A stretch of DNA of 64,000 nucleotides from a bacterium (GTDB lineage: Bacteria > Patescibacteriota > Minisyncoccia > Moranbacterales > UBA2206), in contig JAJYKZ010000002.1 in NCBI GenBank assembly GCA_021788105.1, forward strand, positions 3,320-67,319, written 5' to 3'. Position 1 is the first letter of the stretch; every line of letters begins with the position of its first letter. Shown here piece by piece: positions 1-54,786 of the stretch. The notes under the pieces are model-generated. The model had not been told where the DNA came from. It ran no database searches and saw nothing but the letters and a program-made list of their open reading frames with translations. A program made the position numbers and the translations under genes.

Positions 1-12
1 GCGGAAGCACAA

Positions 13-717: not shown

Positions 718-803
718 TTCAATCTGGGCTATAATTAAAATGCTTTCCAGTGAATAAAGATAATAAAGTAATATGAATTTGATAAGCATACTTTAACTAA
801 ATT

Positions 804-956: not shown

Positions 957-1000
957 GTGGCGTATGATATTTATTCTATAGAAAATTAACTTACATTTTT

Positions 1001-1567: not shown

Positions 1568-1585
1568 ACTTTAATTTTTAATATT

Positions 1586-2152: not shown

Positions 2153-2176
2153 TCATTTATAGGCGAATATTTTTAT

Positions 2177-2800: not shown

Positions 2801-2804
2801 TTTT

Positions 2805-3401: not shown

Positions 3402-3416
3402 CTAATCACAAAAGTT

Positions 3417-3818: not shown

Positions 3819-3937
3819 TCTGGAGAACCTGATTGCCGAAAAATAATTGGAGCTTATTCCAATATACCTCAAGAAGTTCGAGATAAATATAAAGGATATA
3901 TTTCTGAATATCTAACAAAATGATTCAATAATTTATT

Positions 3938-4534: not shown

Positions 4535-4848
4535 AAGATTTACTTGATTTTATAAGTCTCGAAGACCAAAGACTCAAAACGAGCCACGAAATTTATCCTG
4601 ACCAAGAAAAAAGAATCCTGGCTCGCACGGTAAAACTTTCCGAAGAAGTGGGAGAGCTTTGCGATGAAGTTTTGTCGTTCAATGCAATGCAAAGAAAGGA
4701 TAAGCAAAAAGATTATGATGGGAAAAATCTTCCTAATGAAATTGCTGATGTGTTAATAGTTACCTTGCTTTTGGCTAAAGCGATGAATGTGGACATAGAA
4801 AAAGCTTTGGAAAATAAGATTGAAAAAATTAATAAAAGATATGAATAA
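4525..4848 (+). CDS. MazG-like nucleotide pyrophosphohydrolase
   Basis: EEVGELCDEV and EIADVLIVTLLLA motifs. It overlaps the preceding gene by 10 nt. Confidence 0.7.
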   Translation: MDLKDLLDFISLEDQRLKTSHEIYPDQEKRILARTVKLSEEVGELCDEVLSFNAMQRKDKQKDYDGKNLPNEIADVLIVTLLLAKAMNVDIEKALENKIEKINKRYE

Positions 4849-5497
4849 TATCAAAGCTCTAATATTCGATATGGACGGAGTTATTGTTAACTCCGAACCT
4901 ATCCACGAAAAAGCGGAAATGGAAACTTGCCGCGAGTTCGGCATGATAGTTCCTAAACTTGAATGGGATGGTTTTCGGGGCAAAAAACTGGAAGACATTT
5001 TTTCTTATGCCAGCAAAAAATATGGAAAAGGAAATGAACCCATTGAAAAAATGATTAAGAAGAAAATAAATCTGTATCTCCAATATGCCTTAAGTGATAT
5101 GCAATTAGTTTCCGGAGCTTATGAATTTCTACAAGAACTAAAAAGAAATCAAAGATACCGTTATGCGTTGACTACTTCTGGCAGAAGATATCAGCAAGAC
5201 AAAATTCTAAATAAATTCAATCTTGCCAATTTCTTTGATATTATGGTTACAGGCGACGAGGTGAAAAACGGCAAACCGCATCCTGAACCCTACGCAAATA
5301 CGGTTAAAAAACTGAATGAAAATCCAAATGAGTGTCTGGTTATTGAGGATTCTGACAATGGCATTTTTTCCGCCAAAGCGGCTGGTTGCCAGGCTTGCGG
5401 AATAACTACTACTTTCACTAAAGATAGACTCCAATCAGTCGGAGCAGATATGGTAATAAATGACTTTTTTGAATTAGCTAAAATTTTATTTAATTAA
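4841..5497 (+). CDS. HAD-IA family hydrolase (beta-phosphoglucomutase-like)
   Basis: ALIFDMDGVIV (HAD motif I) ... EDSDNG near the C-terminus. The start is ambiguous; the alternative is 4820. Confidence 0.7.
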   Translation: MNNIKALIFDMDGVIVNSEPIHEKAEMETCREFGMIVPKLEWDGFRGKKLEDIFSYASKKYGKGNEPIEKMIKKKINLYLQYALSDMQLVSGAYEFLQELKRNQRYRYALTTSGRRYQQDKILNKFNLANFFDIMVTGDEVKNGKPHPEPYANTVKKLNENPNECLVIEDSDNGIFSAKAAGCQACGITTTFTKDRLQSVGADMVINDFFELAKILFN

Positions 5498-5498
5498 T

Positions 5499-5600
5499 AT
5501 GGAACAATTTAAACATTTTGAAACAAATTTGGAAAAAGAAAACGAATACCCGAAACTGGTGAGGGATAACATTCCTGAAGTAGAACGTTGGAAATTTTAG
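5499..5600 (+). pseudogene. Truncated MazG-like NTP pyrophosphohydrolase N-terminal fragment (33 codons)
   Basis: MEQFKHFETNLEKENEYPKLVRDNIPEVERWKF then stop. KLVRDNIPE is the conserved N-terminal signature of small MazG-like NTP-PPases. Confidence 0.35.
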
Positions 5601-6494: not shown

Positions 6495-7073
6495 ATGAAA
6501 AAATGGAATTTTAAATTGTCGACTCCCGAGAAAATTATTCTTTTTGCAGCCGTAATTTTTGTTTTAGTTCTCAGTTATGGCGTTCCCGAGCTGATTTTTA
6601 AAAATAAAATAAAAACTGCCAGCGAAGCCGGTTTGCAAAACACATATCATGTTATGAAAGTGGTTGACGGCGATACGATTGATGTTGATATTGACGGAAA
6701 GAAAGAATCAGTGCGGCTTATCGGGATCAATACGCCCGAAACCGTCGATCCGAGAAAACCGGTCCAATGTTTCGGCGTTGAAGCTTCCGATAAAGCGAAA
6801 GAAACGCTAAACGGAAAAAATGTTACATTAAAAGCGGACGCGACTCAATCTAACCGGGACAAATATGGAAGGCTCCTTCGTTATGTTTATTTGGAAGACG
6901 GAACAAATTTCAACGAAATGATGGTCAGGGACGGTTATGCTTATGAATATACTTATGATGTTCCATATGAGTATCAAGCCGAATTCATGGCTGCACAACA
7001 GGAAGCTAAAAATGAAGAGCGGGGATTGTGGGCAAAAAATACTTGCGACGGAAAACTGGCCAAAACAAAATGA
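6495..7073 (+). CDS. Thermonuclease / staphylococcal nuclease (SNase) homolog, membrane-anchored or secreted
   Basis: VVDGDTIDV ... VRLIGINTPE ... YGRLLRYVY ... EMMVRDGYAY match the SNase fold signatures. The internal Met at 6495 is preferred because the upstream part overlaps the FKBP gene. Confidence 0.8.
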   Translation: MKKWNFKLSTPEKIILFAAVIFVLVLSYGVPELIFKNKIKTASEAGLQNTYHVMKVVDGDTIDVDIDGKKESVRLIGINTPETVDPRKPVQCFGVEASDKAKETLNGKNVTLKADATQSNRDKYGRLLRYVYLEDGTNFNEMMVRDGYAYEYTYDVPYEYQAEFMAAQQEAKNEERGLWAKNTCDGKLAKTK

Positions 7074-7093
7074 AAAAATTAACAAAAATAAAA

Positions 7094-7119
7094 AGCCTCG
7101 CCCGAAACGAGGTTTTTTG
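7094..7119 (+). terminator. Rho-independent terminator (cctcg-cccgaaa-cgagg + TTTTTT)
   Basis: Hairpin and T-run seen directly after the nuclease gene. Confidence 0.6.
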
Positions 7120-7163
7120 GTATAATAATAAAAAGAACAACAAATAGCCGCAAAAGCTTCTTA

Positions 7164-8378
7164 ATGAAAAAAAGGAAAGCAAAAATTTTTTCAATTATTC
7201 TGGCCAGTTTTTTTATTTTTGTGCTGGCATTTTTCGTCGCGGAAAAAATGAATCGGCCGGTCCATGCGGATAGCGAAAGTGATGGCGGCGAATCGGACGA
7301 CGGACATTTCCAGGTTATTAACACTAATCCTTCCAATGACAAGCCTCAAAAAACAGAAACCAAAACCATTACAACCAGGCTTAGTCCGACAGTCACTCAG
7401 ATAGTAACTACGACGACTCGCCATGATACCGATGGCGACGGTTTGTACGACGATGTGGATCCGCACCCGACGATCAATGAAAATTTCATAGTTAAAGATA
7501 ATAATCTGGACGGAATCGACGACAACTTTGAAACTCCGGATCAATTGAAAAACGTTGGCGTGCCAGGAACTGGTCAAAAAGTGGATTATAAAGGACAGGT
7601 CATTGTGGACAGTGATCTGGATGGACTGACTGATCAAGGAGAAATTCAAATTTATCATACCGACCCGGGCAATCCGGATTCGGACGGAGATGGATATTTG
7701 GACGGAGCGGAAATTTTAGCGGGAACCAATCCGCTGGATTCGAGCGATTATCCCGGCAATTCCAAACAGCAAGTAGATTCGGTCATTCAAAATTTGAGCA
7801 AAGGAACTCCCTGGGTTTGGTATGTTTCGCGCGCTTCCGGAATGATCGGTTTTATTTTTCTTTGGCTGACGGTTTTTTTGGGATTGGCGATTCGCAATCC
7901 TCTTCTCAAAAAAATTATCCAGCCCATATACAGTTTCGGCCTGCATGCGTTCGCGGGGGCGATGGCGATTTTTTGGAGCCTGGTGCACGGAACAAGCTTT
8001 CTTTTTCACGGAAGTTTCGCCCTGAGTTTTAAGGAAGTGGCCATTCCCTTTTATTCCCATACCGCCCTGGTTAATCCGACCTACATGAGCCTCGGTATTA
8101 TCGCTTTCTATCTTATGGTCATTATGGCGGTCACTTCTTTTCTTCGCTCGCATATGAATCACTGGCTTTGGAGGGTTTTGCATTTTTTGAATCCAGTCGC
8201 GTTTATTTTTGTGGTGGTACACGGATATTTCAACGGGACCGATATCAATAATAATTTTTATGTCGGCAGCGCCTTTTTGTTTTCTTCGTTTATTTTGGTG
8301 GTGATATATCTTATAAGTTTGGGGGCGGCGCTCGCTCAAAAGTTTGGCCGGGATCCGGTTTTAAATCAAGACAATTAA
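7164..8378 (+). CDS. Membrane protein: signal anchor + thrombospondin type-3-like Ca-binding repeats + C-terminal ferric-reductase-like (MsrQ/YedZ-like) heme-binding TM domain
   Basis: DTDGDGLYDDVD and DSDGDGYLDGAE Asp-rich repeats. The C-terminal 6-TM region has conserved His in GLHAFAG and VVVHGYF, typical of ferric reductase / MsrQ-like heme b domains. Confidence 0.5.
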   Translation: MKKRKAKIFSIILASFFIFVLAFFVAEKMNRPVHADSESDGGESDDGHFQVINTNPSNDKPQKTETKTITTRLSPTVTQIVTTTTRHDTDGDGLYDDVDPHPTINENFIVKDNNLDGIDDNFETPDQLKNVGVPGTGQKVDYKGQVIVDSDLDGLTDQGEIQIYHTDPGNPDSDGDGYLDGAEILAGTNPLDSSDYPGNSKQQVDSVIQNLSKGTPWVWYVSRASGMIGFIFLWLTVFLGLAIRNPLLKKIIQPIYSFGLHAFAGAMAIFWSLVHGTSFLFHGSFALSFKEVAIPFYSHTALVNPTYMSLGIIAFYLMVIMAVTSFLRSHMNHWLWRVLHFLNPVAFIFVVVHGYFNGTDINNNFYVGSAFLFSSFILVVIYLISLGAALAQKFGRDPVLNQDN

Positions 8379-15948: not shown

Positions 15949-16965
15949 ATGAATACACAAGAAATTATCAAAAAAATTGAGCAAAAAAGAGGTTCCAAGG
16001 TCATAACCTATGTAACCAGTGACCGCCAAGGTCCGGTTAATGCTCGGGTAGCAATGGATATTATTCCGATTATTAGCTCACAGTTGCGAAAAATAGGAAA
16101 ACAGGAAAAAATCGACCTGGTTTTGTATAGCGCCGGTGGCGACACCATGGTGCCTTGGCGCTTGGTTTCAATGATTCGTGAATATTGTGATAAGTTTTCA
16201 GTGATCATTCCTTACAAAGCTCACAGTGCCGCAACCATGATTTCACTCGGTGCTGATGAAATTGTAATGAGTGATATGTCCGAGCTTTCACCAATTGATC
16301 CGTCGACCTCAAACTTTTTCAATCCAGTCGATCCGCAAAATCCGCAGAATAGGATTCCAATTTCCGTGGAAGAAGTAATGAGCTATTTTGATCTGGCAAA
16401 AAATAAGTTTGGCATTAAAAGTGACGAAGACTTGACCAAGATTTTTAATAAGTTTGTGGAAAGCAACCCATCGATCCATCCTTTGGCGTTGGGCAATATT
16501 AACCGCACGCACAACCTGATCAAGATTTTGGCCAAAAGATTGCTCAAGAGCCACAAGGAACCGATGAAGGAGGATGAAGTGGAAAAAGTGATTGAATTTC
16601 TAACGGAAAAATTATATTCGCATCAATACTACATCGGACGCAAAGAAGCCAAAGAAGATTTGGGAATCAAGTCTGTGGTTCTTGCCGACAAGGAGCTTTC
16701 TGATCTGATGACGGAAATTTATGAGGAATACGCTAAAGAAATGAATATGCGGACAATCTGGAATCCGGAAATGGAATTCGCCAAAGGCCAGAACCAAGAA
16801 TACAAGATTGCCTTCGTGGAAAACGCTGAAGGCGGCAGTCATTTCGGAATCAATATGGAATTTAAAAAAGTCCAGCAAAACATCCCGCAACAAACGCAAG
16901 TAGGAATAATTAATATTCCACAGGAACAGATTGTGTGGAGGATTATTGGTCAAGGATGGAAATAA
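15949..16965 (+). CDS. SDH-family ClpP/crotonase-fold serine protease (PF01972-like)
   Basis: VITYVTSDRQG, LVLYSAGGD and YKAHSAATMISLGADEIVMSDMSELSPIDP match, from memory, the serine dehydrogenase proteinase family. It is the first gene of a tightly spaced 7-gene operon. Confidence 0.6.
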   Translation: MNTQEIIKKIEQKRGSKVITYVTSDRQGPVNARVAMDIIPIISSQLRKIGKQEKIDLVLYSAGGDTMVPWRLVSMIREYCDKFSVIIPYKAHSAATMISLGADEIVMSDMSELSPIDPSTSNFFNPVDPQNPQNRIPISVEEVMSYFDLAKNKFGIKSDEDLTKIFNKFVESNPSIHPLALGNINRTHNLIKILAKRLLKSHKEPMKEDEVEKVIEFLTEKLYSHQYYIGRKEAKEDLGIKSVVLADKELSDLMTEIYEEYAKEMNMRTIWNPEMEFAKGQNQEYKIAFVENAEGGSHFGINMEFKKVQQNIPQQTQVGIINIPQEQIVWRIIGQGWK

Positions 16966-16969
16966 AAAT

Positions 16970-17659
16970 ATGGAATTTTTAGATACAAATACAAATTACT
17001 CAAATACAACTTATTACGCCGTTGATTCATCGGTTTATTTCTCTTTTCAAAGGGTAGATAAATTGGATTTGTTATTTTCTTTTTGTAAAGGAAATGCGGT
17101 CATAACTCCGAAAATCGAGGGAGAAATTTTTGGTCAAAGTATTTTTTCATATTCTTATGTCGGATTGTTTGAGCCATGGCTGCGAACTCCAAAAAAGAAC
17201 GATTCAACTTTGGTATGGGATAATTCGTATTTTAACAATATTACCTCAACCATATCTACTGATAAATATAGAAGTTCCTTTTATTTGGCTAATGTTGATT
17301 ATCATTCAATTACTTCAACGATAAATACTTCGTCTTGGCAATATGATTTTTCAAAACTTAAATCAGAGGCAGATAGAGAAATCGCCAGGTGGACAGTATT
17401 AAATTCCGGAAGTGTTTTATTGACCAATGATCAGCCAATCAGGACATTTTTCAAAAATTCTAAAATTAATGTTGTGGGAGCCATCGGCATTCTGATTGAG
17501 TTGGTTAAAAAGGGATTGCTAACGTTGCAAATAGCCGAGAGTATTTACAATAAATGGAGTGAAATTGATCCGGGATGTTGTAAATGGAAAAAAATAAACA
17601 AAGTTAGGCATCTTGTTGAATTTAATGAAATTTATCTAAGTTTTAATTTTCAAAAATAA
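16970..17659 (+). CDS. PIN-like domain protein (VapC-like) with N/S/T-rich insert
   Basis: EFLDTNT at the N-terminus, AVITPKIEGEIFG (PIN-like Glu region) and DREIARWTVLNSGSVLLTNDQPIRTF (PIN C-terminal TxD motif region). The start is 4 nt after the upstream stop. Confidence 0.45.
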   Translation: MEFLDTNTNYSNTTYYAVDSSVYFSFQRVDKLDLLFSFCKGNAVITPKIEGEIFGQSIFSYSYVGLFEPWLRTPKKNDSTLVWDNSYFNNITSTISTDKYRSSFYLANVDYHSITSTINTSSWQYDFSKLKSEADREIARWTVLNSGSVLLTNDQPIRTFFKNSKINVVGAIGILIELVKKGLLTLQIAESIYNKWSEIDPGCCKWKKINKVRHLVEFNEIYLSFNFQK

Positions 17660-17663
17660 ATTT

Positions 17664-18302
17664 ATGACAAAAGAAATTATACAAGTGCAGCTGGCGTGGT
17701 TTTTCGAAAGTGAATACAATGAAAGTTTCGAAAAAATATCATTTAAGCTGAAAGAGAAGATTGGCAATAGTGAGCAAACTCAATATATTCCAGTTCCAAA
17801 TGGCGCTCCCAGTGAATTGCCTAGACTCTTTCTGAAGTACAAAGATTTTAATTTAACTTTTTCAAAAACTCGTGCAGATATATATATATTAAAAAATCAC
17901 AAAGAAATATCAACTATTGAAAATATTAGAAAAATAACAGAGTTGATTATTGATGACTTGCATATAAAAGTTGTTCGAATAGGCTATGTGAAAAGTTTTT
18001 TTGTAGAAGAAACGCTCGAGTATGTAAAAAAAATGTTTAAAGAAGAAAAAATTGCAGGCTTAGATATAAAAGAAATTGGTTTTAATCTTAATGTTCCTAA
18101 GGAAATTGCAGGTATGAAATGTAATAATATAGAAAATTTAGCAATGGGAAACGCTACAAAAAATGGAGAAGTTAAAAACGGATTGATTATAAATCGTGAT
18201 GTTAATAACATTATCGGAGAAAAAAGTGATTTTGATAAAACTGATAAAGTAATTACCGCGATAATTGCATTTGATACAGAAGCGGATAATTTTCTAGTGT
18301 AA
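17664..18302 (+). CDS. Hypothetical protein (no recognisable domain)
   Basis: ORF in operon. 4-nt gaps both sides. Confidence 0.5.
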   Translation: MTKEIIQVQLAWFFESEYNESFEKISFKLKEKIGNSEQTQYIPVPNGAPSELPRLFLKYKDFNLTFSKTRADIYILKNHKEISTIENIRKITELIIDDLHIKVVRIGYVKSFFVEETLEYVKKMFKEEKIAGLDIKEIGFNLNVPKEIAGMKCNNIENLAMGNATKNGEVKNGLIINRDVNNIIGEKSDFDKTDKVITAIIAFDTEADNFLV

Positions 18303-18306
18303 TAAT

Positions 18307-18807
18307 ATGTCTGATGTCTTTATTTATAAAAGAACAGAATCCAGTACGGGAGCTTACTGGGAAAAAGAAAAGTATCAGGCCGAAGGGGCTGATCCTTTTA
18401 CGTACATAAGTCGTATATCTCAAATGGCGAAGGATATAGAAGAGGATTTTAAGAAGAAGTCTGAAAAAATTAAAGATGAAATCAAAACAAGCGAGGATAG
18501 GCTTAATAAAAAAATTGATGATAGTAAATTGAAAATCATTGAAACCCTTGGAATTTTTGTTGCATTATTTACTTTTGTTTCAATAGATTTTCAGGTTTTT
18601 CGAGCATATAAAAATCCATGGTCCATTGGTGGATTAATCCTTATTCTTTTAGGTTCTTTGACGATGTTTTTGATTCTATTGGATTATCTAATTATAAATA
18701 GTTATGCAAATAATAAAATAAAAAAGAAAATTCAATCAGAACTTTGGTTAGTAAATATTGTCTTTCTTGTCATTGGTTTTTTTCTGTTTATAATATCAAA
18801 AAAATAA
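18307..18807 (+). CDS. Hypothetical coiled-coil protein with three C-terminal TM helices
   Basis: Charged, K/E-rich helical N-half. Hydrophobic segments are IFVALFTFVSIDFQVF, LILILLGSLTMFLILLDYLII and LVNIVFLVIGFFLFII. Confidence 0.5.
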   Translation: MSDVFIYKRTESSTGAYWEKEKYQAEGADPFTYISRISQMAKDIEEDFKKKSEKIKDEIKTSEDRLNKKIDDSKLKIIETLGIFVALFTFVSIDFQVFRAYKNPWSIGGLILILLGSLTMFLILLDYLIINSYANNKIKKKIQSELWLVNIVFLVIGFFLFIISKK

Positions 18808-18814
18808 ATTTTTT

Positions 18815-20794
18815 ATGAAAAATTCACTTATATATGAACTTCCTAAAATTGTCGATGAAGGCAAGAGGGAAGTTGAAAAAATATTGGAACGACTTTCAAG
18901 TCAGAATAAATTGGGATTGCAGACCAATGAGTTGGTTTTGCCAGCAAAAGATTCAGCCGGACTTTTTTCCGGTCAAATGCCGAATGCGGATGAAAAGGAA
19001 TGGATGAATCGCTTGGTGTATGGTGACAATCTTTTGGTGATGCAGGCGCTTTTGGCTGGCGACCCGGAGAGTGGACTGCCTTCAATGCGCGGGAAAATTG
19101 ATTTGATCTACATTGATCCGCCGTTTGATTCCAAAGCGGACTATCGCACGAAAGTTACATTGCCCGGCGTTAATTTGGAACAAAAGCCGACCGTCATTGA
19201 ACAATTTGCCTATGCGGACACTTGGAAAGACGGGACGGTTTCATATCTCAAAATGCTTTATCCGCGTTTGGCTTTGATGAAGGAACTTTTATCGGACAAG
19301 GGGTCAATTTATGTTCATATTGATTGGCATGTCGGACATTATGTGAAAATTTTGTTGGATGAAATATTCGGAAAGAATAATTTTAGGAACGAAATAACTT
19401 GGAAAAGTGGCGTTGTTAAAGGGGCTAAAACCACTTCTGATAAATATGGCAGAGTAACTGACTCAATATTTTTTTATACTAAGTCCGATGATTATTTTTT
19501 CAAAACACCATTTAAGCCAATCGACTTAAACAGTCCGAACAATAAATTTATTCATAGAGATAAGGATGGCCGTTTGTATAGCCGTGATAATCCTCTTGGT
19601 GATTATAGTCAAGAATCAATTGATAAATTTGAAAAAGAAGGAAGAATATATCATACAAAGAATGGAAAAAAGCAGCTAATTCGATATTACGACGAAGTTA
19701 AGGGTATTGCTGTTGGCAATCTATGGGATGATATTAACTTTATAAACCAAGTCGCAGATGAAAGACTTGATTATAATACACAGAAGCCCGAAAAATTATT
19801 AGAAAGAATAATAGAAGCATCTTCTCAAGAAAATTCTGTAATTGCTGATTTTTTTGCTGGCTCGGGGACGACTGGAGCGGTGGCGGAAAAATTAAATCGC
19901 AAGTGGGTCATGTCCGATTTGGGTAAGCCGGCGAGCTTGGTGATGCGGAAAAGATTAATTGATCAGAATGCCAAACCTTTTTTCTATCAATCCATCGGCG
20001 ACTATCAAAAAGAAACTTTCGCTTCGGGAAAACTTTTTCGCCGCGTCGGCGATTTGGCCAATGTGGTTTTGCAGCTTTTCGGCGCGATTCCGTTTACCGA
20101 TGACCAAAATCCCAACAGAAATATCGGCTACATAAAAGAAAGCCGGACTTTGGTGCTGGTGGATTCGCCGAGCAAGCTCACCGGCCTTTCCACGCTCAAG
20201 CGCGCGCAGGAGCTCAAAATTTCTTTCATGGGCGGCTGGAATAAGGTTGTGGTATTGGGCTGGAATTTCACTTTTGACATCACCGAAGCCATTCAGAGTT
20301 TGAGCGACAAAGATTTGGAAGTGCTGGTCATTCCGCCGGATCTTTTGGACAAACTTAAGACCAAAGCCAGCTATAAGGACTTGATTGAAAAAAGGAAAAT
20401 CCGCTTTTCGTCTTTGCAATACCTGTCGTTGAAGCCGGTCGCCAAAGAAAATATTTCTGAAAGCGAAGAGAAATTGGAGATTGAGCTGGACAACTATGTT
20501 TTGCTTTCGCCTGACAATATTCCTCTGGACGATAAAGACAAAGAAAAATTGCGCGACATCATCGCCAAAGATCCGCTCTCGCTCATTGAATATTGGAGTA
20601 TCGATCCGGATTATGATGGTGTGACTTTTCGTTCTCGCTGGCAGGATTATCGCGGTAATACCGAAAATGATAGCGATTCTTTGCATGTCATTCGCAAAGC
20701 GCAACTTACCGTTCCGAAAGTTCAAAATCGAAAAGTATGCATCAAAGCAGTGGATGTTTTTGGATTTGAAAGCATCGTTTTGGAAAATTTATAA
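18815..20794 (+). CDS. mod: Type III restriction-modification Mod subunit (beta-class N6-adenine DNA methyltransferase)
   Basis: NRLVYGDNLLVMQALL ... IDLIYIDPPFDS (motif IV) precedes FFAGSGTTG (motif I). This is the beta-class order, in a ~660-aa protein typical of type III Mod. Confidence 0.85.
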   Translation: MKNSLIYELPKIVDEGKREVEKILERLSSQNKLGLQTNELVLPAKDSAGLFSGQMPNADEKEWMNRLVYGDNLLVMQALLAGDPESGLPSMRGKIDLIYIDPPFDSKADYRTKVTLPGVNLEQKPTVIEQFAYADTWKDGTVSYLKMLYPRLALMKELLSDKGSIYVHIDWHVGHYVKILLDEIFGKNNFRNEITWKSGVVKGAKTTSDKYGRVTDSIFFYTKSDDYFFKTPFKPIDLNSPNNKFIHRDKDGRLYSRDNPLGDYSQESIDKFEKEGRIYHTKNGKKQLIRYYDEVKGIAVGNLWDDINFINQVADERLDYNTQKPEKLLERIIEASSQENSVIADFFAGSGTTGAVAEKLNRKWVMSDLGKPASLVMRKRLIDQNAKPFFYQSIGDYQKETFASGKLFRRVGDLANVVLQLFGAIPFTDDQNPNRNIGYIKESRTLVLVDSPSKLTGLSTLKRAQELKISFMGGWNKVVVLGWNFTFDITEAIQSLSDKDLEVLVIPPDLLDKLKTKASYKDLIEKRKIRFSSLQYLSLKPVAKENISESEEKLEIELDNYVLLSPDNIPLDDKDKEKLRDIIAKDPLSLIEYWSIDPDYDGVTFRSRWQDYRGNTENDSDSLHVIRKAQLTVPKVQNRKVCIKAVDVFGFESIVLENL

Positions 20795-20804
20795 AAAGAT
20801 AAAA

Positions 20805-22499
20805 ATGACAAGAGAAGAGTTAGAAAAATTATTGGCAGCCGACAAGGAAACCGAACATCTTGAATTCAAAGAGATGTCCGGGCAGATTTCTATTTTGGGA
20901 AAAGATGAGAGCAAGAAGGGCAATACACAAAAGAAATCACTGTTTGGATATTGTGTTGCAATTGGAAATGAAGGTGGCGGTAAGATAATTTTTGGAGTCA
21001 AAGATAAGATAAACCAAAAAACCGGAAAGCGCGATATTGTTGGAACAGATGCTTTGCCGAATATGCAAAAAGCCAAAGAGCGAATTTATGAGGTTTTAGG
21101 CAGGAGGATAGATATTGAAAATATGCAAACAGAAGATGGATTGGTTCAGATTGTAACGGTTCCGACGCATCCTATTGGAGAACCTTTTGATTTTTATGGA
21201 TTGTATCTGATGAGAAATGGGGAGAAATTGGAAAAAATGGACACTGGAACCTTGGCAAAAATTATCAATGAAGGCAGTCCGGACTTCTCCTCTTTAGAAA
21301 ATGAGAAAGCTGCATGGGATGATTTGGACAGTAAGGCTGTCGAAATCTTGAAGCAAAAATGGATTGAAAAATCCAAAAACTCGGATTTGGTGGATTGCGA
21401 TCATAGAGAAATACTTGAAAAATTAAGACTTGTCACAGGAAAGGGAATAACTAATGCTTGTCTTTTGTTGGTTGGGAAAGAGGATTCGCTTGCGAGACTG
21501 ATTCCAAATTCAGAAATTTTTTTAGAGTGGCGATTGAATGGTAAAAAAGCAGAATATGATCTGAGAAAAATACTTAGAAAACCGTATTTAATTGCTGATG
21601 AAGAAGTTTGGAATTTTGTAGACAGCAGGAATACGCGAGTACCATTCAAGCAAGGATTTTTCGAATTGGATATTTGGTCTTATGATAAGCAAACTATACG
21701 CGAGGCTGTTTTAAATGCATTTGCTCATCGAGAATATTGCAATAGAACTGAGCCGATTTATGTGCGTGTTTCTCCTAATAAAGTTATTGTTAAAAGTGCT
21801 GGCGGATTCGTTTCCGGCGTTACCGTGGAGAATATTTTTGATGTTGAGGGGAAATGGAGGAATTATTTGCTTATGGATGTGCTTGGAAAAATTGGTTTGG
21901 TTGAGCGAGCCGGATTTGGCCTGGATAGAATATATAAAACTACAATTGCGCAGGGCAAGGGTGCGCCTAATTTTGATGGAACTACTAACGAATATGTCAT
22001 ATTGAACATACCGACTAAAGTTCGGGATATAAATTTCGTTTATTTTTTGCAAAAGATAGAAAAGGAAAAACAGTTGGGTATTGATGCTACAAAAGACTTT
22101 GTTGAATTAGAGAAAATAAGAGAAGGTGAAAAAAATTACGACAAGAAAAGACTTAAATTATTTATGGATAATGGTATTGTTGAAAAAATTGGACAAGGCA
22201 AGGGAACCAAATATGTGCTAGCAAAAAAATTCTATGATTTTATTGATAATCAAAGCGAATATACTAGAAAAAAATGGTTAAGTAAGGAACAACAAAAAGA
22301 GGTTTTGATGAATTTTTTTAGACAACATAAAAAAGGACGGATGACGGACTTTTCAAAATTATTTGAGAATAAGTTGAATAATAATCAAATTTTTACTTTA
22401 CTGAGCGAGCTTAGAAGTGATGATTTTGTATATTTTGATGGCAAACAAAGATCTAGTAAGGGCTTTTGGAGACAGAAAAGAGAAGCTGTTAATAAGTAG
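20805..22499 (+). CDS. Schlafen/AlbA_2 DNA-binding domain + HATPase_c_4 (divergent ATPase) protein, RecG-like 'putative transcriptional regulator' family
   Basis: N-terminal ETEHLEFKE (the AlbA_2 ExxLEFK signature) and C-terminal REAVLNAFAHREY ... GLVERAGFGLDRIYK (HATPase_c_4 signature). It is inserted between mod and res. Confidence 0.7.
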   Translation: MTREELEKLLAADKETEHLEFKEMSGQISILGKDESKKGNTQKKSLFGYCVAIGNEGGGKIIFGVKDKINQKTGKRDIVGTDALPNMQKAKERIYEVLGRRIDIENMQTEDGLVQIVTVPTHPIGEPFDFYGLYLMRNGEKLEKMDTGTLAKIINEGSPDFSSLENEKAAWDDLDSKAVEILKQKWIEKSKNSDLVDCDHREILEKLRLVTGKGITNACLLLVGKEDSLARLIPNSEIFLEWRLNGKKAEYDLRKILRKPYLIADEEVWNFVDSRNTRVPFKQGFFELDIWSYDKQTIREAVLNAFAHREYCNRTEPIYVRVSPNKVIVKSAGGFVSGVTVENIFDVEGKWRNYLLMDVLGKIGLVERAGFGLDRIYKTTIAQGKGAPNFDGTTNEYVILNIPTKVRDINFVYFLQKIEKEKQLGIDATKDFVELEKIREGEKNYDKKRLKLFMDNGIVEKIGQGKGTKYVLAKKFYDFIDNQSEYTRKKWLSKEQQKEVLMNFFRQHKKGRMTDFSKLFENKLNNNQIFTLLSELRSDDFVYFDGKQRSSKGFWRQKREAVNK

Positions 22500-42387: not shown

Positions 42388-43524
42388 ATGGCTAAAAAAA
42401 TCATTAGAAAAATAATTTTTATCATCGGAATAATTGTCCTGGGCGGATTGGGCGGCATCATTATGGACCGCTATCTTTTTCCCTATCTCAGCACAATGAG
42501 CTTTTTTTCCAACATCGGTTTTTTGAAAAAATCCACCGAGGACGTGACAGTCATCAACAGGACGGAGCAAGTTACCGTCAAAGAAGAAACCTCGATGGCC
42601 AACATTGCGAGCAAGGCGACCTCATCCGTTGTGAATATTATCGTTCTGCCCGGCAATTCCCAGCCGAAAAACACGGCCGTTGAAAATATCACCGGAGAAA
42701 TTGTGACGAGCGACGGACTGATCATGACTTATGCTCCCAATCTCACTGCCAACTCAAAATACAAAGTAATGCTTTATGATGGCAATGTTTACGATGCCAA
42801 TTTTATCGGAGTTGACGCGTACAGCAATTTGGCTTTCTTGAAAATCAACGCCAGCAATCTTCCGGTCATTTCGTTCGGCGACTCAGGCAGCATTACGCCG
42901 GGAGAAAAAGTGATCGCTATTGCCAACGATTCCGGATCCTATCTCAACGCCTATGATTCCGGAATTATGACCGCCTATCTCCCGACTTTCAATCTGGGCG
43001 GAGCGGCGCTTTCTTCTTCTGAAAATCTGGAAGGCGTGTATGGCGTCGATTTTAATTTTCCGTCCGATTATGTCGGCGGTCCGGTCGTGGACTTCAACGG
43101 CGACACGATCGGAATTCTGGGTTCCGTTTCCACGAATAATTCCAATCAATATTTTGTGATTCCGGTTGACAAGGCGGAAGCGGTGATGAGCAAAGCGATG
43201 GGCAATTCCTTGTCCTCCGATCCGGTCTTGGGAATATATTTTGTTCCTATCACCAAAACTTTCGCGCTGGCGAATAATATCAATGCGGACAAAGGAGCGA
43301 TGATTTATTCTTCTTCCGGCCAGCAAGGCTTGGCGATAATTTACGGTTCGCCGGCCCAGAAAGCGGGATTGAAAATAAACGACATCATAACGGCGATCAA
43401 TGGCACGCAAATTGATCTTAATCACAGCTTGCCGCAACTGCTTTATTCGTTCAAAAAAGGCGATAAAATCACGCTAACAATCAGCCGGAACGGACAGGAA
43501 ACAAAAGTTCCGGTTCAACTCTGA
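42388..43524 (+). CDS. Catalytically inactive HtrA-like pseudo-protease with C-terminal PDZ domain, membrane-anchored
   Basis: Alignment with the neighbouring HtrA shows the triad replaced: His to Pro (TYAPNL), Asp to Asn (SNLAFLKI), Ser to Val (YVGGP). A PDZ-like C-terminus is retained. Confidence 0.6.
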   Translation: MAKKIIRKIIFIIGIIVLGGLGGIIMDRYLFPYLSTMSFFSNIGFLKKSTEDVTVINRTEQVTVKEETSMANIASKATSSVVNIIVLPGNSQPKNTAVENITGEIVTSDGLIMTYAPNLTANSKYKVMLYDGNVYDANFIGVDAYSNLAFLKINASNLPVISFGDSGSITPGEKVIAIANDSGSYLNAYDSGIMTAYLPTFNLGGAALSSSENLEGVYGVDFNFPSDYVGGPVVDFNGDTIGILGSVSTNNSNQYFVIPVDKAEAVMSKAMGNSLSSDPVLGIYFVPITKTFALANNINADKGAMIYSSSGQQGLAIIYGSPAQKAGLKINDIITAINGTQIDLNHSLPQLLYSFKKGDKITLTISRNGQETKVPVQL

Positions 43525-43558
43525 TTACTCGAGAATAAAGACCTGTAGGGATTGTATA

Positions 43559-43581
43559 AGACGCAATAAGCGTCTTTTTTG
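43559..43581 (+). terminator. Rho-independent terminator (agacgc-aataa-gcgtct + TTTTTT)
   Basis: Seen directly. Confidence 0.6.
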
Positions 43582-43589
43582 CGCAAGTA

Positions 43590-43618
43590 TTGACAAAATT
43601 TCGTTTTATGCTAAGCTA
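43590..43618 (+). promoter_or_regulatory. Putative promoter TTGACA -16- (TGc)TAAGCT
   Basis: Consensus -35 and an extended -10-like TGnTAAGCT. It would give a ~150-nt leader for the downstream secreted-protein gene. Confidence 0.3.
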
Positions 43619-43771
43619 TGCAGTTCTCTTTGTATCCGTATTTCTGTGTTTATCCGTATTCAACTCGGCGCTGGTCCCGCTTTTGTGGGACAAGCTCCGT
43701 TAGAATATAGAGGAGTTTCTTAAAAATTAAAATTCAGTTTAACTGAAAATAAAAGACCAAGGAGGTCAGAG

Positions 43772-45106
43772 ATGAAAAGGAAAATGTTGTTCGTAGTGAT
43801 CGCCATTCTGATGGCGATTGGCGTGCCTGCGATTTCGTTCGCGGGTGGAGGCGGGCATGAGGAGGGAGTTCACGTCGACACAGATGTGAATTCATCCTCG
43901 AGCTCAAGTTCAAGCTCGAGTTCAAGCTCAAACAGCACAAATACCGCCTATGGCGGTGAAGGCGGACAGGGTGGAAACGGAGGAGAGGGTGGCCATGGTG
44001 GTAAAGGCGGAAACGCTACTGCCACAGGTGGAAATGCCAGCAATGGCAATCAGACCACCACTGTCGGCGGGCAAAACGTGGAGATAAAAACTCCGCGCGA
44101 GTTTCTGCAGACTCCAATTTCCGGGGAATTTGTAAATCCGGGTATCTCAATCGAAAGTACTAAATGGCGTATTTACTGCCCGGCAGTGTATCGGACACTT
44201 TCAGCGTCCGAGGTGCAGGAAATGGAACGGAAATTCCAGCTTGGGGATATTCTCCCCTGGAACTGGAAAAGCCGCGTCCACATAGTAAATGTGAACAATC
44301 GGCTTCCGGGAAATCCGAGCTCGATTTCCTGTATGAGTTACTGGCCGAAAGCCGAAGCTCTTGCGGGAGACAAAGTTATCGCCGCTGTCACGGTTGATGG
44401 CGACAGCGAGTGGAACGAGGAATCGTTTCTGGGTCTCGCGGCGGATGCATGTCTGCAGGTGGGATCTAGCCGTGTAGCCATATTGGAAAGAACCAGATTT
44501 GCTGGAGTCACTTCAGGTATGGCTTTAGGCTTCGGGGGCGGCGCTTCGCAAGTGCGCGGAAGTACCGGAATGGTTTTTAGCACAACGCCGCAGATTGGAA
44601 CGACAAAAATAACTACCGAAGACCAGGTGCAGTTTCAGGCGCTCTGCATGAACAATGGCCCGCTCGAATTACCGCGGGTGCAGGTATCAACTCCATCACC
44701 GGTCATCAAACCGGCACCGAAGCCAGCGCCCAGTTGCAATCCGGATGAGATTCAGACAAGAATAAATATCGATCTCGAGGCTTGTAGTTATTGTCCTCAT
44801 CCGTGCTTAAACAATGAAGAGCATAGGATATGGGCAGGCCTTGGCTACATCAACAAGTACGTTTGCACACACGACATGGTCTATCTCCTGAACGCCATCG
44901 AACAGTTTCAAATAGCCGAAAGGGATTATCTGCGCGGCTATGAACCGAACGGAGTAAAAACCCGGAAATTAGTAGGAGCGCAGGAGCTGATGCACCAGGC
45001 ATACCAAGCCTGGACTACAGCGATTTACATCCTGAATGGCAAAGAGGCCACGGACAGCTTTGCCAGGATGCATGGGGTAACAAAATATCACACCGAATTC
45101 AAATAA
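43772..45106 (+). CDS. Secreted hypothetical protein with poly-Ser and Gly-rich low-complexity region (GC-richer island gene 1)
   Basis: Signal peptide MKRKMLFVVIAILMAIGVPAISFA, a 13-Ser run, GGEGGQGGNGGEGGHGGKGG, and a Cys-containing C-terminal domain. Strong RBS (aaggaggtc). Confidence 0.6.
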   Translation: MKRKMLFVVIAILMAIGVPAISFAGGGGHEEGVHVDTDVNSSSSSSSSSSSSSNSTNTAYGGEGGQGGNGGEGGHGGKGGNATATGGNASNGNQTTTVGGQNVEIKTPREFLQTPISGEFVNPGISIESTKWRIYCPAVYRTLSASEVQEMERKFQLGDILPWNWKSRVHIVNVNNRLPGNPSSISCMSYWPKAEALAGDKVIAAVTVDGDSEWNEESFLGLAADACLQVGSSRVAILERTRFAGVTSGMALGFGGGASQVRGSTGMVFSTTPQIGTTKITTEDQVQFQALCMNNGPLELPRVQVSTPSPVIKPAPKPAPSCNPDEIQTRINIDLEACSYCPHPCLNNEEHRIWAGLGYINKYVCTHDMVYLLNAIEQFQIAERDYLRGYEPNGVKTRKLVGAQELMHQAYQAWTTAIYILNGKEATDSFARMHGVTKYHTEFK

Positions 45107-45124
45107 AGAAAGGCAGGAAATGAA

Positions 45125-46018
45125 ATGAAAAGGATTTTGGCTTTGTTGTCTGTATTCTTTTTTGTAATCTGTGCTGTTCCTGTTGCCCACGCGTTTGAGT
45201 ACGCGGGACAGGAGCAGGTTGTACCGGCTCAAACGTCGATTGCGGTCGACCAAACCGCCAACGAGTTGAAAAAGCTTCGCGGCGAGCTCGGAGGAACAAA
45301 GAGGGTTGTCTCGGCCCTCAAAAAAGAAGAGGCGAAGAGAACGGCTTCCGAGGAAAACTTGGCGAAGCAGACCAAGGAACTCGGAGAAACAGCCGTATCC
45401 TCTTTGCAGCAAAACGCCGCGGCGAATGCGGCGATGACGAATTCAGTTGCCAGCCTGAAAACCAACCTGAACAAGTTTGGCAGCAAGGTTGATGAGGTGA
45501 ATTCCTCTGTCTATGGCGATTACATAGTATTAGGTTTTATAATTATCGTGGCGCTGGTGACCATCCTTTTTGTGCTCGTATCGCTTCAGAGAAATCTGAG
45601 GCGTGAAATAAGGGAAAGTGCGACGGCCGTCGAACAGGCTGTCGAACAAGTCGTAGTGCAAGCCAGGGACCACATCGTAAACGAGGTTCCGAACCGCACG
45701 GCGACCGCAATCCGCACCCTCGATTCTTCGCCCTTCGAGTTTGAAGCGGCGGGGCATCAGGTTACGTACAAGTCGCCGGCGGAAGGAATAGCGGAGGGGT
45801 ATTATTTAACCCTCCATGTTCCCAAGGACATGGCGGGAGACGCAGCCATCTATCACCGCGACCACGAAACAAATCGCGGGGTGGCGCGGAGAAACATTCG
45901 CAAAACAATGCAACAATATTTCGAGGGCAAGTTTGATGCCCCCGAGTACGAGTTGCAGAAAAAGCTGATTGAGCATTTGAAGAGTACGGGAGAAATCTCG
46001 TATCGCAAGATCAGCTAG
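45125..46018 (+). CDS. Hypothetical bitopic membrane protein: signal peptide, extracellular coiled-coil, TM, cytoplasmic domain (GC-richer island gene 2)
   Basis: Signal peptide ending VAHA, an Ala/Lys/Glu-rich helical region, then a TM helix (YIVLGFIIIVALVTILFVLV). Confidence 0.55.
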   Translation: MKRILALLSVFFFVICAVPVAHAFEYAGQEQVVPAQTSIAVDQTANELKKLRGELGGTKRVVSALKKEEAKRTASEENLAKQTKELGETAVSSLQQNAAANAAMTNSVASLKTNLNKFGSKVDEVNSSVYGDYIVLGFIIIVALVTILFVLVSLQRNLRREIRESATAVEQAVEQVVVQARDHIVNEVPNRTATAIRTLDSSPFEFEAAGHQVTYKSPAEGIAEGYYLTLHVPKDMAGDAAIYHRDHETNRGVARRNIRKTMQQYFEGKFDAPEYELQKKLIEHLKSTGEISYRKIS

Positions 46019-46025
46019 GCTGTAC

Positions 46026-46057
46026 GGGAGCTTGGACGAAGTTATGTCCAAGCTCCC
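46026..46057 (+). terminator. Perfect 12-bp stem hairpin (gggagcttggac-gaagttat-gtccaagctccc) 8 nt after stop; no T-run
   Basis: Seen directly. Could be a terminator or an RNA-stability / processing hairpin. Confidence 0.35.
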
Positions 46058-46085
46058 GCCCAAACCACCAAGTTTCAATATCAAG

Positions 46086-46180
46086 CTGCGATAGCAGTTT
46101 GATATGTCAGAGAACTTCGATAGAAGTCTCTGAACTGGCACTGCGATAGCAGTCCAAAATACATTCCTCTGCGATAGCAG
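46086..46180. repeat. Array of a 12-bp near-palindromic motif CTGCGATAGCAG (3 exact copies at 46086, 46141, 46169; variant CTTCGATAGAAG at ~46115)
   Basis: Exact repeats seen directly in a non-coding stretch. Confidence 0.7.
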
Positions 46181-46472
46181 GCGGAAAGTATGTCTTAATT
46201 GGCGCAACTTAAGATTTAATTGCTTCAATTGTCTCAAATTGAATTAGAAAACAAACCGGAAAAATTTCCGGATGACATAAATAGGCGTCGTATCAACATA
46301 CGCGCCTTTTAATTTTGCAAAAAAATATAATCCCGGTAGTAATACATTAATGGCATTTTTTGAAACATTGACCGGCCGGCCGGAAGGTGCTACGCTCAAA
46401 GACTTGACGGAAATGAAAAAATAGCCTATCTATTGAATAACGCCATTTACGGCAAATTATTGGATTAATTCA

Positions 46473-47375
46473 ATGCAAACCCTGAAATCAAAACTATTTT
46501 GGACTCTGAGCATAATCGCGGTCGCGATTATTTTCACCGTGTTTTATAATTCCAACAAAACCTTTGTCGGCGAGACGCAGATTTTGCTTCTGCCCAAAAG
46601 CGACGCGACTTCCCGGAATATTGAACAAATTATTGCCAATGCCCGGGTGATTCCCAAATCGCTTTCTTTTTATAACGCTATGCTGACTGAGAATTCCGAC
46701 ATTGAAGATGGCGCGGCACAATTGCCGGACGCCCAGCGGAAAATATATTGGGATTCCAAAATAAATATCGATCGCATCGGCCGGAGCGGCATTTTGGAAA
46801 TTTCCGTTTTTGACAAAAGCCCGATGCAGGCGCAGATCATTTCCGAGCAAACAGCAGCCGACATCGCGGTCGTTCTCAGCCGCTATTATAATATCAAGAC
46901 CGAACTCGATGTCCGGTTCACGGAAGGAACGATCGTCAGCAACACGGTGCCTGTGAATTTTTGGAGCGAGGCGGTTGCGGCGAGTGTCGTTCTGGGATTT
47001 ATTTTGGGAGCGGCGATTGCCAATATTATTTTTTCCTTGCAAAGAAAACGCGAAGTTTTTTATAAAGAAAAAATAGAATCAATATTCAGATTCCGAAAGA
47101 CCGAAGAAGAAATGGTCCATAAACCAGAACCGAAAAAAGAAATTAAAATTGAAGAACCGGTTAAGCCAGCAGCAAAAAAAGTGCCGCCAATTTCCTCAGA
47201 AAGAAAAGCGGCGGCGCCTTTCAATCTTCCGATTGGCGAAGGGTCTGAAATTAAAACCGGAACAGTGAGTTTTGCGCCGGGCGAGGGAAAACAGGAAAAA
47301 GCCGACCATACGCGCGAAGCAACGGCTGAAGAAGTGAAAGAAAGACTGAACAAGCTTTTGAAAGGAAATTTCTAG
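46473..47375 (+). CDS. Wzz-like polysaccharide co-polymerase-like protein with K/E/P-rich cytoplasmic tail
   Basis: TM1 near the N-terminus, a ~160-aa periplasmic domain, TM2, then a charged tail. Confidence 0.35.
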   Translation: MQTLKSKLFWTLSIIAVAIIFTVFYNSNKTFVGETQILLLPKSDATSRNIEQIIANARVIPKSLSFYNAMLTENSDIEDGAAQLPDAQRKIYWDSKINIDRIGRSGILEISVFDKSPMQAQIISEQTAADIAVVLSRYYNIKTELDVRFTEGTIVSNTVPVNFWSEAVAASVVLGFILGAAIANIIFSLQRKREVFYKEKIESIFRFRKTEEEMVHKPEPKKEIKIEEPVKPAAKKVPPISSERKAAAPFNLPIGEGSEIKTGTVSFAPGEGKQEKADHTREATAEEVKERLNKLLKGNF

Positions 47376-53657: not shown

Positions 53658-53688
53658 TACTACCGTATTCTAGTATATGGTAGTAAGT
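53658..53688. repeat. Palindromic repeat copy 2 (one arm mismatch), 18 nt upstream of ATG 53707
   Basis: atactaccgtattctagtatatggtagtaag. Confidence 0.7.
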
Positions 53689-53706
53689 AAGATTAAACAT
53701 AAAATT

Positions 53707-54786
53707 ATGTTAGAACAATTTGATTTCTCAAAAATTGAAGATCAGAAAAAGTTTGAAAAATTTCCAAAACAAGAAAAGGAGAAAAATGTTGATGATGCCC
53801 ATAAAGAAGCTCTGGGTATAAAAGAATTTGCAACCGAACTTGTCAGACGCAAGGGAAAATCTTTAGTTTTGGCTCAAGATTATGAAAATGCAATTGATTC
53901 TATTGGTTGGATAGATTATGGATTTGACGCATATGAAGAAACTGAAGCTGAGAATAAAATCAATGAATTGACTGAAGAATTACCTCCAGAGATTATAGAT
54001 TCGATAATGGATAAAGTTCAAGATTTAAATCGAAAAGGGGTTATATATACCAATTTAAGATCACATATAAATTCTCATAACAATTCTAATAAATCTTACG
54101 ATACAAAAACAGAATTTAGAAAAACGATGCAAGAAGGGCTTCTTGGAAAAAATTTTATTGATCGGGGTGAAGTTACAAAAGAATTATGGGCAAAACATGT
54201 TAGAGATAAGGAGTGGAAAGGTCAATGGCGTGGAGCTGGTATATGGTTTAATATTGTGGGAAGAGTGGCTCCAAATTTTATAGATGATCAGTTGTTGGAA
54301 TATGATACAAAAAAGGACATTGTACGTTCTCCGTTAACGATTTTTAAAACAGGAGAAAGTTACGGCAATGGTTTGCCGACGTTAATTTTTGAATTGCCTA
54401 ATAGTAAGGAAGTAAATGAGATAAATGAGTTTGGATGGAGAAATGAGAGTGGATATAATAATTATAGAGTTATGGAAGAACGAAAAGTAAATAAGTATGG
54501 GGTTAATAATAAAAATGAAGAGTTAGTGGATCCTAGTCATGGTTTTGTGCTAACAGGACGGGTAGCGCCTAGATTTTTTAAAGGTCTAATAGTAGAAAAT
54601 TCAGCCTATAGTTGTTATCCATTTTTAGTTAATATGGCAGAAGTCAATAAAAATAATCCTAAAAATCTATTTCCAGTATACAATGAATTTGGAGATTTAC
54701 TTTGGCCAAAAAAGTTAAGCTATGAAGAAGTTAAAAAACAAATAGCCGAAAAAGAACAGATCAAAAAAGAACATACTGAAAAATAA
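53707..54786 (+). CDS. Hypothetical protein with internal duplication (GRVAPNF / GRVAPRFF)
   Basis: WFNIVGRVAPNFIDDQLLEY and GFVLTGRVAPRFFKGLIVEN are repeated. No recognisable domain. Start chosen downstream of the palindrome; the track ORF begins at 53677 inside the repeat. Confidence 0.45.
   Translation: MLEQFDFSKIEDQKKFEKFPKQEKEKNVDDAHKEALGIKEFATELVRRKGKSLVLAQDYENAIDSIGWIDYGFDAYEETEAENKINELTEELPPEIIDSIMDKVQDLNRKGVIYTNLRSHINSHNNSNKSYDTKTEFRKTMQEGLLGKNFIDRGEVTKELWAKHVRDKEWKGQWRGAGIWFNIVGRVAPNFIDDQLLEYDTKKDIVRSPLTIFKTGESYGNGLPTLIFELPNSKEVNEINEFGWRNESGYNNYRVMEERKVNKYGVNNKNEELVDPSHGFVLTGRVAPRFFKGLIVENSAYSCYPFLVNMAEVNKNNPKNLFPVYNEFGDLLWPKKLSYEEVKKQIAEKEQIKKEHTEK

Follow-up and report, generated by a model that had tools for sequence, protein, structure and literature searches.

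Does a GC-rich pair of genes with orphan products, set in AT-rich DNA, represent a recent import or a resident part of the cell envelope? The question is raised by two adjacent open reading frames (ORFs) in a 64,000-nt stretch of DNA, here called the window, which covers positions 3,320-67,319 (+) of contig JAJYKZ010000002.1 in assembly GCA_021788105.1 (Patescibacteriota; Minisyncoccia; Moranbacterales; UBA2206). The products of the ORFs at 43772..45106 and 45125..46018 are referred to as P1 and P2, and loci on related contigs carry L-numbers. Bacteria of the candidate phyla radiation (CPR; Patescibacteria) form a very large group that is almost wholly uncultured, the surface of these cells is thought to mediate host dependence, and most of their envelope proteins are orphans. 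We conclude with high confidence that P1-P2 is a vertically inherited envelope operon and not a product of horizontal transfer. The fuller reading, namely a vertically inherited cell-envelope operon of Paceibacteria/Moranbacteria-type Patescibacteria in which P1, P2 and the RNA of the operon are joined in the mechanism proposed below, is favoured more guardedly.

Related contigs were retrieved, in part with an alignment of eight P1 sequences, and genes were mapped on them with hidden Markov models built in this analysis. Gene order is kept in more than 20 related Patescibacteria contigs wherever the contig extends far enough. In full it reads ClpB, DUF5656, HtrA, [LPXTG protein, sortase], P1, P2, [glycosyltransferase], a Wzz-like protein with two transmembrane (TM) segments, rmlC, rmlB, rmlD and SHMT, and the window shows the same order minus the LPXTG and sortase pair. 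The original prediction, made from the window by itself, had taken the pair for a horizontally acquired island, had proposed a check for a synteny break and had named synteny kept throughout the lineage as a refutation. There is no break, as P1-P2 lies at the junction between htrA and the Wzz-like gene in all related contigs that span it. The related records are labelled Patescibacteria, Paceibacteria, Moraniibacteriota (Moranbacteria) or Parcubacteria, with two labelled Bdellovibrionales. These two are the metagenome-assembled genomes behind L012 (CAZFCX010000002.1) and L014 (CAZWRY010000001.1), labelled "uncultured Bdellovibrionales", which nevertheless show the full ClpB-DUF5656-HtrA-LPXTG-sortase-P1-P2-rml synteny of the Patescibacteria type; both contigs are probably mis-binned or mis-classified.

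The two predicted ORFs, coding for 444 and 297 aa, were both confirmed, and so was their GC content above that of the surroundings. Mean GC in the window is 0.416, whereas the P1 gene reaches 0.515 and the P2 gene 0.516 (z = 1.97 each), which places them second and first among the 57 non-overlapping ORFs of the window. The distinct codon usage that had been claimed, with codons such as gcg and ggc, was not found: in a per-gene test of synonymous usage P1 ranks 27th and P2 15th of the 57 window genes, and in P1 the codons GCG and GGC have the same relative synonymous usage as in the window on average. GC at third codon positions is mildly raised (z = 0.99 for P1 and 1.82 for P2), and GC at second positions of P1 (0.474) mirrors its content of Gly, Ala and Ser. 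The modest excess is thus mainly a matter of amino-acid composition together with mildly raised third-position GC, and is mostly non-synonymous. Orthologues of P1 and P2 are GC-richer than their own locus in 12/12 loci measured, by about 2.5 to 11 points, and because of this the excess is to be seen as a trait of these genes and not as a mark of recent import. The lesson is that a GC bump by itself can mislead; here it is a family trait.

A recently acquired horizontal island bearing a surface or adhesion module would account for the top GC of the window, for a terminator and promoter on one flank with repeats on the other, and for products that look orphan in a word-indexed protein search. 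We consider it very improbable, since the pair occupies the identical position in the related contigs, its GC excess recurs in the orthologues, its synonymous codon usage is not deviant, and neither mobility genes nor direct-repeat borders accompany it. No integrase or transposase ORF was found in 41-49 kb of the window, and a search for direct-repeat borders returned short chance matches only on the flanks of the pair. The "repeats" that had been noted on the downstream flank are conserved RNA structure of the operon itself. The island claim is thus contradicted by synteny, by the orthologues' GC and by ordinary codons, whereas the accompanying suggestion of a surface module is supported by context: both products have signal peptides, relatives carry a sortase and an LPXTG protein upstream, and P1 sister proteins are fused to OmpA.

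The first product of the operon has the following layout:

43772..45106, + strand: P1, a secreted two-domain protein of 444 aa, defined by its ORF and by family alignments
P1 aa 1-24: signal peptide
P1 aa 25 to about 104: Ser/Gly/Asn-rich spacer with an ATGGNA motif
P1 aa ~105-300: N-domain, followed by a Pro-rich linker
P1 aa ~321-444: Cys-containing helical C-domain

P1 is acidic, about 42 kDa in mass, and carries nine Cys, seven of them unchanged throughout the four closest sequences. The signal peptide, the 13-residue poly-Ser run, the GGxGG tract and the Cys-containing domain were all as predicted. Word-indexed protein searches returned just 3-5 homologues, their candidate lists being overrun by low-complexity words, whereas an exhaustive profile search gave a family of 205 cluster representatives at E <= 1e-3 and 72 at E <= 1e-30, nearly all of 400-480 aa. 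The family shares one architecture of signal peptide, N/Q/T/S-rich spacer (often with ATGGNA), N-domain of about 200 residues, Pro-rich linker and C-domain of about 120 residues. Neither P1 nor P2 matched a family in Pfam, NCBIfam, PHROG or PADLOC. In an AlphaFold model of P1 built on a six-sequence alignment the C-domain is confident (pLDDT ~77-92) and all-helical. Foldseek matched this domain (pLDDT ~85) to TPR and 14-3-3 proteins with a probability of up to 0.96, although at E > 0.2, so the C-domain looks TPR-like at the level of the model; P1 gave no Pfam TPR match. Foldseek is silent on the N-domain because the model is reliable for the C-domain only.

The location of the N-domain is indicated by sister proteins. 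A subfamily with the P1 N-domain ends in Pfam OmpA (PF00691) in 5/10 members scanned, at E = 1e-8 to 1e-17, and one of these fusions comes from a genome of the CPR bacterium Candidatus Portnoybacteria. The fusion would place the P1 N-domain in the peptidoglycan compartment, and the replacement of the C-domain by OmpA suggests, by sequence comparison, that the variable C-terminal end of the family is an anchoring end. P1 itself has no OmpA domain by Pfam scan and no LPXTG sorting signal, and ends in ...GVTKYHTEFK without a TM segment.

The second product lies directly downstream of P1 in all loci and is laid out as follows:

45125..46018, + strand: P2, a type-I bitopic membrane protein of 297 aa
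P2 aa 1-23: signal peptide
P2 conserved mature N-terminus: AFEYAGQEQVV, with the family pattern A-F/V-x-x-x-G-E-E-x-V-V
P2 variable extracellular coiled coil: long predicted helix at aa 44-124
P2 aa ~133-155: TM helix, then QRNLRRE
P2 aa ~198-297: conserved cytoplasmic alpha/beta C-domain of about 100 residues

The prediction of a bitopic coiled-coil membrane protein with a signal peptide holds, given the second hydrophobic helix and the long predicted helix. The P2 gene starts 10-80 nt after P1 in every locus. In other lineages P2 is short, ending just past the TM helix without a C-domain, and the mature N-terminus is conserved in long and short forms alike. There is no LPXTG upstream of the TM helix. 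No significant match came from PDB searches by sequence and profile with P1, P2 or the C-domain of P2, a fold search with P2 gave no match, and the C-domain had no Pfam match in the eight members scanned. Weak PADLOC and PHROG matches to P2 fall in or overlap the coiled-coil/TM region and were discarded, and the NCBIfam matches "ArsS" and "YajC" are far below cut-off. An eL28/Mak16-like domain was also considered for the C-domain, but the best PDB match, eL28, is non-significant (E = 0.21 over 75 residues) and serves as a mere lead.

The initiation region of the operon bears on how strongly it may be expressed:

43559..43580, + strand: terminator of the upstream htrA-like gene, AGACGC-aataa-GCGTCT (43559-43575) followed by TTTTT, by direct sequence reading
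43590..43618, + strand: P1-P2 promoter, with -35 TTGACA, a 17-nt spacer and extended -10 TGCTAAGCT, by direct sequence reading
43666..43710, + strand: 5' leader RNA, with a 12-bp stem formed by 43666-43677 and 43688-43699 and then near-invariant single-stranded GUUAGAAUAUAG
about 43754-43767, + strand: ribosome-binding site AAGGAGG (43759-43765), 6 nt before the ATG, inside a small GACC/GGUC hairpin

An automated scan for promoter and terminator patterns missed both the htrA terminator and the operon promoter, which are plain by reading. Both had been predicted, and the promoter box TTGACAAAA...TGCTAnAnT is kept upstream of P1 in 13 other loci; the canonical AGGAGG site predicted for P1 is present as AAGGAGG. 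The operon is probably strongly expressed. Placement of the P1 Shine-Dalgarno sequence in or right after a short conserved hairpin (e.g. GACC-AAGGA-GGUC) was also noted by eye in L008, L011, L012, L014, L024 and L026.

A consensus-like promoter, a long structured leader and a strong ribosome-binding site are what is seen in surface-layer (S-layer) genes. Together with the acidic, secreted nature of P1 and its mass they could mean that P1 is the chief protein of a surface layer or wall coat and P2 an unrelated membrane protein of the same operon. This is improbable in our view. Many cysteines are unusual for S-layer proteins, whereas P1 has nine with seven conserved among close homologues. The close spacing of P2 behind P1 in every locus and its conserved mature N-terminus speak against an unrelated partner, and OmpA in place of the C-domain in sister proteins suggests that this end serves as an anchor.

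The surroundings of the operon in relatives also point to the envelope. A sortase was found in 11 loci. A Pfam Sortase gene lies directly upstream of P1 in 10/10 distinct related loci that reach upstream (those checked at that stage), and a small LPXTG substrate precedes the sortase in all of these but L009, where the stretch is broken by a run of N. The substrates consist of a signal peptide, a DVDxDxxNxNT...ATGG...QSQSQ low-complexity chain, L/VPxTG, a TM segment and a KKYS tail, and their N-terminal low-complexity segment matches the P1 profile. A locus added later, L020, has no sortase match. In the window no sortase domain was found anywhere in the 64 kb, and comparison of 43472-43771 with relatives shows the htrA terminator directly abutting the P1 promoter; the window has lost or moved the LPXTG-sortase pair. 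The window ORF at 7164-8378 was rejected as a sortase, as it matches weakly, and only to the TSP3 repeats of the relatives' sortase proteins. It encodes a membrane protein of the ferric-reductase type, in which bacterial TSP3 repeats are joined to a ferric-reductase-type transmembrane domain. In L009 (~6900-7830), L018/L019 (~300-1230) and L020 (~3300-4310) an extra Gly/Ala/Ser/Asn-rich ORF ending in ...SSSSKASSR stands directly before P1, and in the clade of L009, L018 and L019 the 5' leader apparently lies upstream of this ORF (weak covariance-model matches, E = 0.02-0.6).

The operon is flanked by structured RNA at both ends. At the 5' end 83% of cells in the leader stem are paired among 13 sequences, 10/12 pairs are changed on both sides, and 0/500 shuffles reach the observed score, with slid controls paired at 35-47%. 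The stretch 3' of the stem is near-invariant across loci (GUUAAAAUAUAG), and each locus gave a single match to a covariance model of the leader, always ahead of the P1 operon and nowhere else. At the 3' end the following elements are found:

46025..46058, + strand: H0, a perfect 13-bp GC-rich hairpin, 6 nt past the P2 stop, with no U-tract
46078..46191, + strand: array of four RNA hairpins, each with the tip C-GAUA-G (minimum free energy z = -9.6)
46078-46105, + strand: array hairpin h1
46107-46133, + strand: array hairpin h2
46136-46156, + strand: array hairpin h3
46159-46191, + strand: array hairpin h4
46247..46316, + strand: 3' terminal element, consisting of GAAAACAA, a small hairpin (46256-46271), UGACAUAAAUA and an intrinsic terminator (stem 46284-46306 plus TTTTAATTTT)

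The downstream hairpin had been predicted with a 12-bp stem, and its existence stands while its length is corrected. The array of CTGCGATAGCAG repeats had likewise been seen, with three exact copies and one variant CTTCGATAGAAG and none elsewhere in the 64 kb, but its nature is re-described here, since the repeats are the tips of four tandem RNA stem-loops. The outer stems differ in sequence between hairpins and keep their complementarity. Among the window, L009 and L010, H0 shows three compensatory pairs, RNAalifold counts eight on the 3' side, and the G-U pairs speak for the + strand. Across 28 GAUA/GACA units drawn from seven genomes, neither the G-A-Y-A loop nor the C-G pair that closes it varies, and the stems covary, with a covariation score of 0.63 vs 0.20 shuffled; these units had been selected in part on the inner four pairs, but not on the outer three. 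Hairpins of the C-GAUA-G type are confined to this array in the window. The layout of H0, four hairpins, GAAAAYAA, small hairpin and intrinsic terminator recurs in nine lineages, and homologues of the GAAAAYAA-hairpin-terminator part are present in L005, L007, L010, L013, L033 and L035. In L032 (3991-4300) and L034 (3826-4135) the array is expanded to 7-8 C-GAUA-G units, with four elsewhere, so that its copy number is variable.

A clustered regularly interspaced short palindromic repeat (CRISPR) array was rejected, as the conserved core is just 6-12 nt long and the "spacers" are complementary outer stems; no cas genes were seen among the nearby ORFs of the window. Operator sites for a transcription factor were rejected as well, since the extended complementary stems and the G-U pairs point to RNA. 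That the 5' leader might base-pair with the 3' loops was considered and dropped, the leader having no complementarity to the GAUA loops. Rfam gave no match at E <= 1 over 43400-46600 on both strands, and leader and array are structured RNA elements so far undescribed.

The presence of the array follows the form of P2. It is found in 13/13 lineages with long P2, that is, with the C-domain (nine first-round lineages and four fetched later), and in 0/9 with short P2, where a plain terminator takes its place. The two states are interspersed on a neighbour-joining tree of P1. Loops are uniform inside one array and differ between lineages:

loop C-GAUA-G: window, L009, L010
loop C-UAU-G: L013
loop CAAG-like: L018, L019
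loop AAUC: L022
loop CCUU-like: L005
loop of AAxU type (AAU/AAC/ACU/AUG): L007

The association was put to a prediction test with four further loci that have window-type C-domains, and 4/4 carry H0 and C-GAUA-G arrays of 4-8 copies. With these included, the window-type C-domain goes with GAUA loops in 7/7, and divergent C-domains accompany other loops (UAU, CAAG, AAUC, CCUU). In L020 both the array and the C-domain are gone while H0 and the terminator are kept; the two losses are non-contiguous, with H0 in between.

Based on these observations one may speculate on how the parts work together. P1 would be exported by Sec, with its Ser/Gly/Asn spacer spanning the wall, and its N-domain would act in the peptidoglycan compartment, as is suggested by the sister proteins in which this domain is fused to OmpA. 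The TPR-like, disulfide-braced C-domain of P1 would dock on the mature N-terminal peptide or the coiled coil of P2, and P2 would hold P1 at the membrane. This anchoring model is plausible and is put forward tentatively. Where present, the cytoplasmic C-domain of P2, or a partner that it recruits, would read the identical tetraloops on the 3' untranslated region (UTR) of its own operon, and this could either feed envelope status back on the fate of the mRNA (autoregulation) or keep the mRNA attached to the membrane. That the C-domain recognises the array directly is a possibility that we regard as rather doubtful. Likewise unlikely, if worth stating, is that it constitutes a new loop-specific RNA-binding module for C-GAUA-G, and for other tetraloops in other lineages, within the 3' UTR of the mRNA that encodes it. 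If true, C-domain and array would form a fast-evolving matched protein-RNA cassette that ties the state of the P1-P2 surface complex to mRNA fate or to the localisation of the transcript at the membrane.

Several observations weigh against this reading of the operon. P1 and P2 are without a Pfam, NCBIfam or PDB relative, so that no function is fixed by a known homologue; the model of the P1 N-domain is unreliable (pLDDT < 50); and the high expression assumed for the operon is read from the quality of promoter and ribosome-binding site only. With a pI of 5.3-9.5 the C-domain of P2 is not basic, and it shows no recognised RNA-binding fold. P1 of L009, L018 and L019 is 84-87% identical while their C-domains are just 31-39% identical and their loops differ; the C-domain of L009 most resembles those of the window and L010, and all three loci have GAUA loops. 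From this contrast it follows that the 3' half of P2 and the UTR behave as an exchangeable cassette. Since the coding region of the C-domain adjoins the array and the two appear to be exchanged together between close relatives, linkage alone could yield most of the co-occurrence and co-variation.

The same facts, namely adjacency, cassette-like replacement between genomes with ~85% identical P1, and the nature of the C-domain, favour an account in which the array is a generic 3' UTR element, such as an exonuclease block or termination aid of the REP (repetitive extragenic palindromic) type, unlinked to P2 and co-travelling with it by adjacency. The copy number of 4 to 8 would suit such an element. 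This account is possible, though we lean away from it. A stabiliser needs stems and not a fixed loop, whereas here neither the loop nor its closing pair changes between genomes whose P1 is 40% identical, even as the stems drift. Loops are also uniform within an array and differ by type of C-domain, L020 has lost array and C-domain separately with H0 retained between them, and operons with short P2 manage with a plain terminator.

The reader of the loops could also be encoded elsewhere, the array then being a sponge or regulatory RNA derived from the 3' UTR for another RNA-binding protein, as CsrB/RsmZ are for CsrA. Multiple identical loop motifs in tandem hairpins with their own terminator are in line with this, and the transcript could be processed at H0. 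A promoter would not fit between H0 and h1, however, no candidate protein was identified, and the strict co-occurrence of array and C-domain (13/13 vs 0/9) would have to be coincidence or linkage, which makes this alternative decidedly improbable.

The array is comparable in its logic, and in that only, to protein-binding hairpins such as CsrB/RsmZ with their GGA loops for CsrA, phage boxB and the MS2 operator hairpins. It consists of tandem stem-loops that keep the loop sequence while the stems covary, the usual signature of loop-specific recognition by a protein. The present case differs in that the loop is C-GAUA-G or a lineage-specific alternative, in that it lies in the 3' UTR of an envelope operon, and in that the candidate reader is a membrane-anchored domain without a known fold.

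On the protein side the locus resembles Gram-positive sortase loci, as relatives have a Pfam Sortase and a substrate with signal peptide, LPXTG, TM segment and KK-tail upstream of P1, with Sec export and wall-polysaccharide neighbours. Unlike in those loci, a sorting signal is lacking from P1 and P2, no sortase domain occurs in the 64 kb of the window, and the LPXTG partner of the relatives is a low-complexity N/Q/S-rich chain and not an Ig-fold pilin. The sister proteins of P1, with its N-domain and OmpA (PF00691), recall envelope proteins of the OmpA/Pal type, whereas P1 itself ends in a Cys-containing TPR-like helical domain restricted to the P1 family. The Pam pili of CPR bacteria, reported chiefly from Saccharimonadia and Microgenomatia, where their genes adjoin those for ATP synthase, consist of Ig-like pilins assembled by donor-strand exchange and show that orphan CPR operons can encode abundant surface structures (bioRxiv 10.64898/2026.03.03.709456). 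Pam resembles P1-P2 as a CPR-restricted operon of signal-peptide proteins that had no known function before, with membrane-anchored helpers and paired cysteines; P1-P2 differs from it in the architecture of P1, in its neighbours and in the CPR classes that carry it, the comparison being one of descriptions.

The locus defines a conserved operon of two unnamed protein families, linked to a sortase and LPXTG pair. It also gives two structured RNA elements new to Rfam and a clean pattern of presence/absence and co-variation that ties an array of RNA hairpins to a protein domain. The link between domain and array is amenable to direct test without cultivating the organism, by means of a 100-residue domain and synthetic hairpins.

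Downstream of the operon the conserved order continues with one further orphan:

46473..47375, + strand: next syntenic gene, a two-TM Wzz-like membrane protein, with an orthologue in every locus, always between P2 and the rml genes

Its product gave no Pfam match and has a strongly conserved C-terminal tail, EEVKERLNKLLKG (R-E-A-T-P-E-E-V-K-E-R-L-N-K-L-L-K-G). The gene has its own putative promoter, TTGACG-17-TATCTA, at 46404-46432. We infer the Wzz-like label from topology and neighbours only, and the product may be a polysaccharide co-polymerase-like protein.

Elsewhere in the window, low-GC blocks at 16931-18807 and 53677-54786 (also 1-5500) have a GC of 0.29-0.31 against the mean of 0.416. 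Their ORFs are real outliers in synonymous codon usage and compositionally stronger ones than P1 and P2, and the blocks are better candidates for foreign DNA than the P1-P2 pair. Three ORFs at 16.9-18.8 kb and one at 53.7 kb are without a solid Pfam family. Adjoining a low-GC block, the ORF at 20667-22499 (GC 0.35) carries Schlafen/AlbA_2 and HATPase_c_4 domains and may be related to defence.

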